This document shows, in pieces, positions 1 through 49,550 of a stretch of DNA of 64,000 nt (the first letter of the stretch is position 1; each line of letters starts with the position of its first letter). The notes under the pieces are model-generated. The model saw nothing but the letters and a program-made list of their open reading frames with translations. It made no database searches and was not told where the DNA came from. The position numbers were made by a program, and so were the translations under genes. This DNA comes from Candidatus Helarchaeota archaeon (lineage in GTDB: Archaea > Asgardarchaeota > Lokiarchaeia > Helarchaeales > RDOG01), in NCBI GenBank assembly GCA_019058315.1, contig JAHPZH010000006.1:32001-96000 (forward strand), in the 5' to 3' direction.

Positions 1-304
1 TCTCCATTTTTAATCATTTTTTTTCTTTCAATTAAATCCTCTTCGTCGAAACGTTTCCAAAAATCATCTATATCAAAGATTCCCCAGTTTCTAAGATATT
101 CATCAAATTTCCTTCCAGAACGCCAAAAGGTGTGAATTTCTTGTTTGGTAAGCTCTTTTTTAGTTAGAATAAAAACAATCTTTGTAATTATTACGTCTAG
201 AATTTCAAAGAAATTCTTGGGAACGTGGATGAATACACTTTAGAAAAATATTTTCATAAATTTGTGCCATCCAAATCAAAAAGAAGTCCGATGTTATTTT
301 TCAT
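1..304 (-). CDS. HAD-superfamily hydrolase, intron-containing (exon1 304..262, exon2 232..<1); 3' end runs off the window
   Basis: ATG at 304 gives MKNNIGLLFDLDGT. Removing 233..261 continues IIHVPKNFFEILDV..., open to the window edge. HAD motif I DxDGT. Not in the ORF track. Confidence 0.85.
233..261 (-). other. 29-nt BHB mRNA intron in the HAD gene
   Basis: Minus strand TGGATG-GCAC-AA^A-TTTATGAAAATATTTTTCTAAA-GTGT-AT^T-CATCCA: 6-bp outer helix, 4-bp central helix, two 3-nt bulges. Contains an in-frame TGA. Confidence 0.88.
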
Positions 305-6127: not shown

Positions 6128-6476
6128 TTAAGTTCCTCGTCTTCTATATTTACACCCTTTTATGGGACAAAATCTATATTGAGGAGCAGAAGATCCGGCA
6201 ACTGGTCTTTTAATAATCCATCCAGAAACCCAACCATGATGTGGACAGTAATATTTTTCTCTATCTTTTAAATTTTCATCTTGTTCGTCTTGTGTAACTT
6301 TAAAATTACATACATCATGTGTTTGTTTATATTTTTCATTTACTGGACATACATTCCCTTTACGTTTAATTAAATTTACGCGGGCTATCCTCAGAATTTA
6401 TACATCCAGTACAATCTACTGGAATTTCTTTCACCTCATGTTCATATTTAATTATTGAAAGATTGTCTTTATACAT
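6128..6476 (-). CDS. Small Cys/His-rich (putative Zn-binding) protein, intron-containing (exon1 6476..6376, exon2 6359..6128; 110 aa from ATG 6476, start uncertain)
   Basis: Spliced product ...PVDCTGCINSEDSPRK-GNVCPVN...YYCPHHGW...RFCPIKGCKYRRRGT*. Exons total 333 nt. Not in the ORF track. Confidence 0.7.
6360..6375 (-). other. 16-nt BHB mRNA intron
   Basis: Minus strand CCC-GCGT-AA^A-TTTAATTAA-ACGT-AA^A-GGG; in-frame TAA; inner stem is only about 2 bp. Confidence 0.7.
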
Positions 6477-31996: not shown

Positions 31997-32925
31997 ATGG
32001 AAATAATTTTTTTAGGAACATCAGGGACAGTTCCAACTGTTTCACGCAGTTTGCCTGCAATAATAATAAAAAGAGAAAATGATTTTTTGCTTTTTGATTG
32101 CGGTGAAAAAAACTAATTAATTGTAGTTTTCACTAAGGCACACAACTTCAATTTAGGAAAGCAAAAATCAGTTTTTTTAAAATTAATAAGATTTTTCTTT
32201 CACATTTACATGGCGATCATATTACTGGGTTACCTGGTCTAATTATGTCATTAGCTTTAGGTAAAAGAGAGAAAACTCTTACAATTTATGGACCTAATGG
32301 GATTAAAGGATTTATAAATAAAGTTATTGATACAATGCATTTTGATTTAACTTATCCTTTAGAAATAGTTGAAATAGCTGGAGAAGAAAATTTTGAATTT
32401 TTAAATTATAAAATTACTTGTTTTCCTTTAGAACATAGGATATTTACCTTAGGATATGTTATTGTAGAAAAACCAAAGGCAAAATTCGATGTTGAAAAGG
32501 CGAAGTCATTAAAAATTCCAAAAGGTCCTTTATGGGGAAAATTGAAATCAGGTGAAAGTATTCATTTAAATAATGGGAGAGTTATCCAACCTTCCCAAGT
32601 TTTAGGAAATATAAAACCTGGAAAAAAAATTTTATATTGCACAGATACTCGTCCTACAATTAAGACAAAAAATTTAAGCAAGAACGCAGATTTACTCATT
32701 CATGATGGTATGTTTGAAGAGAATCTAAAAGAGTTCGCTACAATTGGAGGACATTCAACAGTAGTTGAAGCCGCAGAACTGGCTAAAGATTCGAAAGTAA
32801 AAAAATTAATCTTATTCCATATAAGTTCTAGATATGAAAATAATAATTCTATTTTAGAACTTCAAGCAAAAAAAATTTTTCCTAATTCATTCATAGCTGA
32901 AGATTTTATGAGAATTTTAGTTTAA
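31997..32925 (+). CDS. rnz: Ribonuclease Z, intron-containing (exon1 31997..32107, exon2 32137..32925; 299 aa)
   Basis: [14 protein letters not shown]...LFDCGE|GTQ...SHLHGDH..G, exosite GPLWG, CTDT, HST, HIS. The ORF track finds only the C-terminal part. Confidence 0.93.
32108..32136 (+). other. 29-nt BHB mRNA intron in rnz
   Basis: TGC-GGTG-AA^A-AAAACTA-attaattg-TAGTTTT-CACT-AA^G-GCA; in-frame TAA. Confidence 0.92.
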
Positions 32926-47398: not shown

Positions 47399-49550
47399 TT
47401 AAAAAAAATCGGCTTTTGGTATTTCAGCTTTTCTACCTTTTTTTATACGAATGTCTGAAATTATTTTTTGAGCGCTATCATAGGAAATAAATTCCCAATG
47501 AGAAAAAACTGTTTGCCAGAATGCTTGTCCTGCAGTTTTTGAACGAATATCAGTAGATAGATTAAATGATTCTTTAACTGGAATTAGACCAGTAATGTAT
47601 GAATAAGAATCTTTTTGTTCAATATTTAGAATTTTGCTTTTCCTTTGTAATAATAAAGCTGTAATAACTCCTATTAGATTTGTAGGAACTTGGATTTGAA
47701 TCTTATAAATTGGCTCAAAAATAGTAGGTTCTGATTTTAAAAAAGCGCTGTAAACCGCTCTTTTACCCATTAACATAATTTGAAGCGGATCGACTTCTAA
47801 AGTATTTTTATCAATTTTTAATAAATGGATATTTATTTGCAATCCTTTTATTGGTTCTTCGCATAAAGGTCCTGCATTTAGAGCCATTTTAATACCCTTT
47901 ATAATAATTTCTTTGATTTTATCATCAATTTCTTGGCTTAAATCATTAATAATTAGATTATTATTGTAATCTATTGCTAGAATCTTCTTATGTTTTAAAA
48001 TTTCTTTAATTCTTTCTTCGTTTATTGGTTCTACTGAAAGTTTGATTTGATTCAAATTATTTTGACTTAAAGTTGAAATTATTGGGCTCTTTATTTTAAT
48101 TCCTTCTCTGTAGACTACAATTGGATCGGACATTAATATGTCAATCCCAAAATCTTTTATTTCATTAGCAATGATTTCTAGATGTAATTGTCCGATTCCA
48201 GAAATCAAATATTCCCCTGTATCTTCATTAATATCGATTTTTATATCGGGATCGTTTATTTTTATTTTATTTAAAATATCTAGCATTTTAGGTAATTCCT
48301 TTGGATGTTTGGGTTCAATAGAAACTGTTATAACAGGATCTGATACATATTTGATATTTTCAAATGGGTCAATTATTTCTTTAAACTCACTATTAGTTAA
48401 TGTTTCTCCAACTATTGCCTCTGAGAGGCCTATAAAAGCTCCAATATTACCTGCTGTAAGAGAATTAACAATTTCTCTTTTATGTCCCATTGAAATGAAA
48501 ATTTTTAAAACTCGATTAATGTCTTTCGCAGTTAATAAATAGACTTCATCACCTGAATTAATGGTTCCAGAAAATATACGTCCTATTGATATTTTTCCTA
48601 CATGTTTGTCAAATAATATCTTATGAATACAAATAATTAATGGTCCATTTTCATTACATTTTTGCATATTTTGTGCTAAAGCTGAATTTAAATCGCCTTT
48701 CCAAATTTTTTTAATTCTATAAGTTTGTGCAATTTTAGGACTTGGCAAATGATTAATTATCATATTTAATATACATTTATCTAAAGGTAGAATTTCACTT
48801 AATATCTCAATTTTGTTTATTCCATTTTTATAATAATTAAAAATATTATCAAACTTTAGTTTCTTATTTTTCATGATATTTAATGTAAAACCCCAACTAG
48901 GATATAAAGCGCATCCAAATCCTACATTATTCATTTCTGGAATTATTTTCCATTTATCTTTAAATTCATTTTCAGCATAAAGTTCAATATAATCGTTAAA
49001 TTTATCTATAATATTTTGAAAATAATTTTGAATTTCATTAGAGTTTAATTTTAATTCTTTTATTAAACGATCAACTTTATTTATATACAGAATTGGTTTT
49101 ATACGTTCTTGCAAAGCTTGTTTTGTTACAATTTCTGTCTGAATTTGGCATCCTTCAACTGCATCTACAACTACAATGGCACCATCAATTGCTCTTAACG
49201 CTCTAGATACTCTGGCAGTTAAATCCACTTAGTCTATAAAAATAATTTTATTTTTATATATGACCTGGAGTATCTATCAGATTAATAATGAATCTCTCAT
49301 TAGCTATTTGATACAATAATGAAATATTTGCAGTCTTAACTGTAATTCCTCTTTTTTGTTCAATATCTAAATAATCCAGAGCCCGAAGAGAACCTGCTAA
49401 ATTTGAAGATATTACTTTCCCTAATGCTAAAAGGCTATCAGTTAAAGTAGTCTTTCCATGGTCTATATGCGCTATTATACCAATATTGCGTATGTTGTCC
49501 TTTTGTTTCATTGTTTCTAAAATTTCATTAATTTTTTTTGATTTTACCAT
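47399..49550 (-). CDS. fusA: Elongation factor 2 homolog, intron-containing (exon1 49550..49260, exon2 49228..47399; 706 aa)
   Basis: AHIDHGKTT, RGIT, spliced DTPGH|VD, NKVD, GQLHLE, EPIY; diphthamide HRG motif absent. Confidence 0.92.
49229..49259 (-). other. 31-nt BHB mRNA intron in EF-2
   Basis: Minus strand CCA-GGTC-AT^A-TATAAAAATA-aaat-TATTTTTATA-GACT-AA^G-TGG; in-frame TAA. Confidence 0.93.

Follow-up and report, generated by a model that had tools for sequence, protein, structure and literature searches.

The gene at the left edge of the window (the whole stretch of DNA analysed, 64,000 nucleotides) raises the question of how a HAD-family hydrolase could be produced from two reading frames that are separated by 29 nucleotides (nt) directly after the nucleophile motif. 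A bulge-helix-bulge (BHB) intron had been proposed here in the initial annotation. As judged from sequence comparison, the 29 nt at 261..233 of the minus strand are very probably an archaeal BHB intron lying within the coding sequence of a HAD-IA hydrolase, and we infer that the HAD pre-mRNA is cut and ligated in the cell.

Gene organization and predicted product

The HAD gene is located on the minus strand, and its start codon is the ATG at 304-302, with an in-frame TAA two codons earlier. Exon 1 (262..304, minus strand) consists of 14 codons (MKNNIGLLFDLDGT) plus the first base of an Ile codon. It matches the N-termini of the intronless orthologs P0004-P0007 in length and motif, and encodes the nucleophile motif I, DxDGT. 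Without splicing, the exon-1 frame continues after these 14 residues with NL and a stop, and is closed after 16 codons. Exon 2 occupies 1..232 of the minus strand in the window, is open to the window edge, and extends 415 nt beyond it (L001:1086-1730, minus strand), to G000:C6:31586 (L001:1086). The exon-2 frame opens after the TAA at 242-240 and reads (SVF)IHVPKNFFEILD..., and exon 2 contributes 215 residues after the junction codon, with the HAD motifs II-IV. In silico excision of 261..233 (29 nt) fuses both frames through the Ile codon A|TC in phase 1, which results in a 229-amino-acid (aa) protein that reads FDLDGTIIHVPKNFFEILD, with the junction DLDGT|IIHVP in the context ...FDLDGTIIHVP.... 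The predicted nucleotide joint is GATGGCACAA|TCATCCAC, and the predicted peptide across the junction is …GLLFDLDGTIIHVPK. The spliced DLDGTIIHV and the frame open to the window edge, both part of the original description, could be confirmed, and the open frame was found to run on for the 415 nt given above.

Exon 2 alone matched the Pfam families HAD_2 (3.8e-18), Hydrolase_like and Hydrolase, so the downstream frame is homologous to HAD proteins, as had been supposed. The NCBIfam model TIGR01549 (HAD-IA) exceeded its cut-off while the specific equivalogs (PpaX, PGP/phosphoglycolate phosphatase) all scored below theirs; these scores place the product at the level of a predicted HAD-IA phosphatase-type hydrolase. 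The HAD motif set is complete, with DLDGT in exon 1 and ISNTP, KAKPQP and GDTDLD in exon 2. The gene is single-copy in the genome, where the next match is 29% identical. Gene callers give truncated products only, namely 143 aa without the catalytic Asp in this genome, and 143, 203 and 204 aa among the closest matches.

The HAD gene begins inside the upstream C_GCAxxG_C_C gene (minus strand, 294-764), whose final 11 nt (window 294-304, minus strand) include its start codon, and this overlap suggests co-transcription. From the HAD start codon it is only about 30 nt to the beginning of the BHB motif, and ribosomes and endonuclease would therefore be rivals for one stretch of RNA.

Structure of the insert

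The insert (233..261, minus strand) is 29 nt long and in phase 1. It carries an in-frame TGA at 256-254 that ends the frame of exon 1, and the TAA at 242-240 closes the exon-2 frame. The outer helix h is exonic and comprises 6 bp, formed by TGGATG (268..273, minus strand) and CATCCA (226..231, minus strand). The central helix of 4 bp, one of them a G.U pair, is formed by the exon strand GCAC (264..267, minus strand), which corresponds to the third base of the Gly codon and the first bases of the Thr codon, and the intron strand GTGT (235..238, minus strand). The 5' bulge AAA lies at 261..263 and the 3' bulge ATT at 232..234 (both minus strand), with the predicted cuts between 262 and 261 and between 233 and 232. 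The inner hairpin h' (239..260, minus strand) is built from TTTA (260-257)/TAAA (242-239) and GAAAA (255-251)/TTTTC (247-243) with a 3-nt loop. Exon 1, the boundaries of the insert, both helices and both bulges agree to the base with those first described.

The insert therefore displays the hBHBh' layout, in which two 3-nt bulges on opposite strands are separated by a 4-bp helix and flanked by the helices h and h'. Each bulge sits 3' of its central-helix strand, and this order is that of archaeal pre-tRNAs. According to the cutting rule stated for cbf5 (PMC2738675), each bulge is cut at the bond that joins its second residue to the third. When this rule was applied here in silico, exactly the frame-breaking 29 nt were taken out. 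The chance rate of a motif of at least this quality in the genome (outer helix of 6 bp or more, central helix of 4 bp, inner helix of 4 bp or more) was 3.1e-6 per (position, length) pair, and a colinear HAD protein results from one such pair only. Compared with the unconstrained minimum free energy, the BHB fold was equal in the ortholog L006, within 0.1 kcal/mol in the window, and 1.2-2.7 kcal/mol away in L004 and L002.

Alternative BHB-like pairs that would remove 68-69 nt (L002, L006) also keep the frame; they were rejected, as they delete the conserved GT-IIHVPENFFEV and have weak helices. A group I or group II self-splicing intron was likewise rejected, since the insert has only 29 nt against the hundreds of nt of a ribozyme core and relevant Rfam matches were absent. 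No Rfam family matched the HAD intron, and a search of the window and the genome for further copies of it returned only short AT-rich chance matches.

Comparison with intronless orthologs

The protein search revealed six uninterrupted orthologs with 66-71% identity, namely five full-length proteins of 229-232 aa and a partial call of 179 aa. Their sequence across the junction position is ...G[I/L/V]L[F/L]DLDGT[I/L]IHVPE[N/D]FF..., and the spliced HAD product aligned with it without any indel. The proposed junction DLDGT|IIHVP thus reproduces what all six orthologs encode without interruption. Another 29 more distant homologs, fetched from 81 same-class representatives with a match, were all uninterrupted at motif I.

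The HAD gene adjoins Cdc48 at the three intronless loci that were fetched (L041, L043 and L044), and also in the window and in L002. Among the three intronless loci, TatD was called at L041 and L043, and C_GCAxxG at L041 only. The GTDB order of the host comprises only 7 species, and a scan of metagenome contigs, by protein and by alignment, confirmed no more intron-bearing relatives. One contig, L045 (P0011, 85% identical in the middle of the protein), has unrelated sequence (L045:1-200) at the position of exon 1 and the intron, and its 3' end diverges too; this contig was probably assembled as a chimera.

Orthologous inserts and selection

Inserts at the same site and in the same phase were found in three further independent assemblies, with a length of 30 nt in L002 (NCBI name "Hodarchaeota"), 30 nt in L004/L005, and 29 nt in L006 ("Helarchaeota"). 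The HAD proteins of these assemblies are 83%, 87% and 47% identical to that of the window, respectively. The interiors of the orthologous introns diverge (16-24 of 30 positions identical), and the inner hairpin is formed in all of them. The central helix is GUAC/GUAC in L002, L004 and L006 versus GCAC/GUGU in the window. Pair 266:236 is C-G in the window and U-A in the three orthologous introns, which represents a compensatory change; its exon side is the synonymous Gly substitution GGU to GGC, matched by A to G in the intron. A second double change is present in the inner helix, bringing the pairs altered on both sides to a total of two.

In the four-sequence intron alignment, 98% of the cells pair, compared to 27-48% when the partner is slid by 1-3 columns. 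RNAalifold independently recovered the outer and central helices with a 3-nt bulge from the same four sequences. The observed covariation values were attained in 26 of 500 shuffles in the shuffle control, and the four distinct sequences include three close kin; the covariation is modest evidence that the BHB structure is maintained. Part of the conservation of the outer helix is accounted for by the protein, since the strands of this helix consist of conserved codons. All four intron-bearers keep TTG GAT GGY ACA | HTC ATY CRY, and the intronless orthologs vary at those synonymous sites (TTA/CTG, GAC, GGA, ACG/ACT, ATT).

Over motif I, the exon-1 differences among the four intron-bearing lineages are synonymous only. 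For the three closest intron-bearing genes, those of the window, L002 and L004, dN/dS was 0.12-0.16 at dS 0.48-0.74. By these values the HAD gene is under purifying selection and is alive.

Alternative explanations for the interruption

The interruption can also be read in ways that need no intron. It could be that only exon 2 is used, with a short protein (for example 143 aa) starting from an internal Met and with exon 1 and the insert serving as an untranslated leader, which would agree with the automatic annotation (P0008, P0009, P0002, P0012). However, such a product would be devoid of the catalytic nucleophile, the Asp of motif I, and could not act as a HAD phosphatase. The protein sequence of exon 1 is preserved in four lineages, among which its substitutions are all synonymous, and the region from the junction to the internal Met is also conserved as protein and aligns with the orthologs; an internal start is accordingly regarded as very unlikely. 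Slightly below it in likelihood, and highly improbable, is a loss of gene function, either as a pseudogene or through a small insertion, in which case the BHB-like fold would be fortuitous and no full-length protein would be made. The stop after 16 codons in the unspliced frame and the truncated 143- or 204-aa products of the gene callers fit this explanation, and BHB-like motifs of relaxed quality are common in the AT-rich DNA here. An inactive gene is nevertheless difficult to reconcile with an interruption kept at one site in four lineages, at dS 0.5-0.7 and beyond, with a dN/dS of 0.12-0.16 and motif I changes in exon 1 that are all synonymous, or with a compensatory change that keeps the structure of a motif whose quality has a chance rate of 3e-6.

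Bypassing of the insert during translation was considered as well. Ribosome hopping of the phage T4 gene 60 type, from the ACA (Thr) codon over the insert, would require no RNA splicing, and L002, L004 and L006 do have an ACA before the insert and a frame-correct second ACA at its 3' end, with a hairpin between the two codons. The window, however, has no matching landing codon, the required one being GTA, and its stop is located two codons after the take-off ACA and not adjacent to it. The GTACA repeat of the relatives corresponds to the palindromic central helix, and hopping would leave both the conserved two-bulge geometry and the compensatory change unexplained, which makes it extremely unlikely. 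A single ribosomal frameshift was rejected, as the exon-1 frame has already ended at TGA 256-254 by the point where the exon-2 frame opens, behind TAA 242-240. Stop read-through was rejected too; it is conceivable only for the 30-nt in-frame inserts (L002, L004), where it would add 10 residues in motif I, and is impossible with the 29-nt inserts. Errors of assembly or sequencing, or else a small mobile element with target-site duplication, could account for the 7-nt direct repeat GTACAAT at both insert borders in L002 and L004. Yet the insert recurs in four assemblies made independently from different samples, repeats are missing from its borders in the window (GCACAAA versus GTGTATT), no other genomic copy exists, and a transposable element would have to be larger than 29-30 nt; the probability of this origin is close to nil. 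A spliced BHB intron remains the explanation that is preferred here.

Predicted splicing machinery

The removal of the BHB intron would proceed as follows. In the pre-mRNA, the exon codons L-D-G and I-H would pair to give the 6-bp outer helix, while the exon GCAC and the intron GUGU would form the 4-bp central helix between the two 3-nt bulges and an AU-rich hairpin would close the intron. A heteromeric (alpha-beta) EndA would then cut after the second nt of each bulge, and RtcB would join the exons, so that the Ile codon A|UC is restored and motif I is linked to motifs II-IV in the 229-aa protein.

Genes for these enzymes could be identified in the genome. The best match of an EndA alpha homolog (L038:1228-1779, plus strand) was the alpha subunit of the heterotetramer of A. 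pernix (Aeropyrum pernix; 3p1z_B, E 3.9e-45). This homolog keeps the catalytic His; the Tyr, His and Lys were read by eye from the aligned motifs. Its gene is located on a small 31-kb contig (C12), and the host genome is a MAG with 6.6% estimated contamination. In a paralog of EndA (L039:1477-2079, minus strand), the catalytic His is replaced by Pro-Ser, pointing to a beta subunit, and the alpha-like and beta-like pair together imply an (alpha-beta)2 splicing endonuclease. The ligase RtcB is also encoded in the genome (E 9e-175; L040). EndA of Asgard archaea has been reported to be an (alpha-beta)2 enzyme (PMC5829648), and this is the type linked to cbf5 splicing.

Other split genes in the window and genome

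The window contains further genes of this kind. In the EF-2 gene, a BHB insert of 31 nt in phase 0 (49229-49259, minus strand), with an outer helix of 4 bp and an inner helix of 10 bp, interrupts the frame at DTPGH|VD, and the exons match the GTP_EFTU profile at positions 2-79 and 82-151. This is the only canonical copy of EF-2 in the genome, the other EF-2-like locus being only 33% identical; therefore, the organism must be able to splice mRNA in this manner. The gene for RNase Z (rnz) is interrupted at LFDCGE|GTQLQ; here the insert has 29 nt and is in phase 0 (32108-32136, plus strand), with the central helix GGUG/CACU, an outer helix of only 3 bp and an inner helix of 7 bp, and exon 2 of rnz matches Lactamase_B_2 from profile position 26. 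A small Cys/His-rich ORF has a 16-nt candidate insert (6360-6375, minus strand) in which GCGU/ACGU forms the central helix, the outer helix has 3 bp, all GC, and the inner loop is minimal; removal of the insert, in phase 2, gives a 113-aa frame. The earlier assignment of phase 1 to the HAD gene, phase 0 to rnz and EF-2, and phase 2 to the Cys/His-rich gene holds.

The genome was scanned for BHB motifs whose cuts join two open frames, with strict thresholds (outer helix of 5 bp or more, inner helix of 3 bp or more) and with relaxed ones. In both scans, frames joined by a BHB motif were no commoner than in controls for which the 3' cut had been moved by 1-2 nt. The strict scan misses the rnz and EF-2 introns, and adjacent genes on the same strand raise the background. 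Given that there was no excess over the shifted controls, such introns are not shown to be numerous in the genome, and the joining of ORFs cannot be used to count them. The scanning recovered EF-2 and a few plausible further candidates. Candidate inserts joining long frames were observed at G000:C10:138976 (minus strand, 32 nt) and G000:C5:499169 (plus strand, 33 nt), and one candidate junction, ...GVSQSLIAR-I-ETGSVD..., resembles a helix-turn-helix protein.

Evolution of the predicted HAD intron

In the protein tree, the window, L002 and L004 cluster together (89/90 support) and L006 is deep-branching. The intronless G008, L041 and a five-member group fall between L006 and this cluster, and a single clade of the four intron-bearers was rejected (AU p = 0.0005). 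As the intron-bearers do not form one clade, the distribution requires that an old intron was precisely lost at least twice or that an intron was gained on two occasions at an identical site. The common site, phase, length and GUAC helix favour the old intron with losses, which would be the more plausible history.

Relation to known introns

A pre-mRNA intron has been described in cbf5 of Crenarchaeota (Desulfurococcales/Sulfolobales; Watanabe 2002; Yoshinari 2006; Yokobori 2009, PMC2738675). The HAD case is similar in that a short BHB intron is located in a coding sequence, the predicted cuts lie between the second and third bulge nt, and the EndA of the host is heteromeric, (alpha-beta)2. 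The intron is also patchily distributed among orthologs in both cases, implying gain and loss, and gene callers miss or truncate the gene. However, cbf5 encodes an RNA-modification enzyme in Crenarchaeota, whereas the gene studied here encodes a predicted HAD-IA hydrolase in an Asgard archaeon, and many cbf5 introns are described as relaxed while the HAD motif is a strict hBHBh'. Splicing of cbf5 was demonstrated by cDNA and in vitro cleavage; that of the HAD gene is predicted from its sequence.

In eukaryotes, the HAC1/XBP1 mRNA contains a non-spliceosomal intron that is cut by Ire1 and ligated by RtcB or Trl1, and its removal changes the frame. The likeness to the HAD gene consists in a non-spliceosomal mRNA intron, the use of an endonuclease and a tRNA-type ligase, and the frame change. 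The difference is that HAC1/XBP1 employs Ire1 and another recognition motif, and the stress-linked regulatory role belongs to HAC1/XBP1.

An mRNA intron is also known from HVO_1309 of Haloferax volcanii (Schwarz 2020, PMC7714728), where an mRNA BHB is likewise cut by the tRNA splicing endonuclease. Unlike the HAD intron, it lies in the 5' UTR and restores no frame, and the host endonuclease is alpha2 (PMC10485636). The introns of archaeal tRNAs, including those of the intron-rich Asgard Atabeyarchaeia and Freyarchaeia (PMC11291895; bioRxiv 10.64898/2026.10.13.758758), share the same motif, the expected enzymes and a similarly short length, but their host RNA is a tRNA whereas the HAD intron is in an mRNA. 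Text searches of these two Asgard papers found introns of tRNA genes only in the searchable text. The figure given in a review of 2023 is "at least two archaeal genes". In the literature searched, cbf5 was the only archaeal coding-sequence BHB intron, the Haloferax case being a UTR one. The predicted HAD intron is thus new in its phylum (Asgard) and in its gene, and is one of several in the same genome.

Biological significance

The HAD gene is a comparatively supported case in an ordinary metabolic Asgard gene, near an equally split EF-2, and suggests that BHB-type mRNA splicing is used more widely than the literature records. Gene callers silently truncate split genes, which introduces a bias into the proteomes of these lineages and into reconstructions of their metabolism. 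The presence and absence of the intron at an identical site among orthologs provides a tractable system for the study of intron gain and precise loss. In the broadest interpretation, mRNA introns spliced by the endonuclease would form a whole set in this archaeon, to which the HAD intron would belong, with at least four of them in the 64-kb window, including that in the single canonical EF-2; the HAD intron would be old, predating the split of lineages whose HAD proteins are now only 47% identical, and would have been precisely lost at least twice. We consider the chances of this broad interpretation to be evenly balanced. If it is true, protein-gene introns that are removed by the tRNA machinery, with their dynamics of gain and loss, would be a regular feature of how genes are expressed in close prokaryotic kin of eukaryotes.
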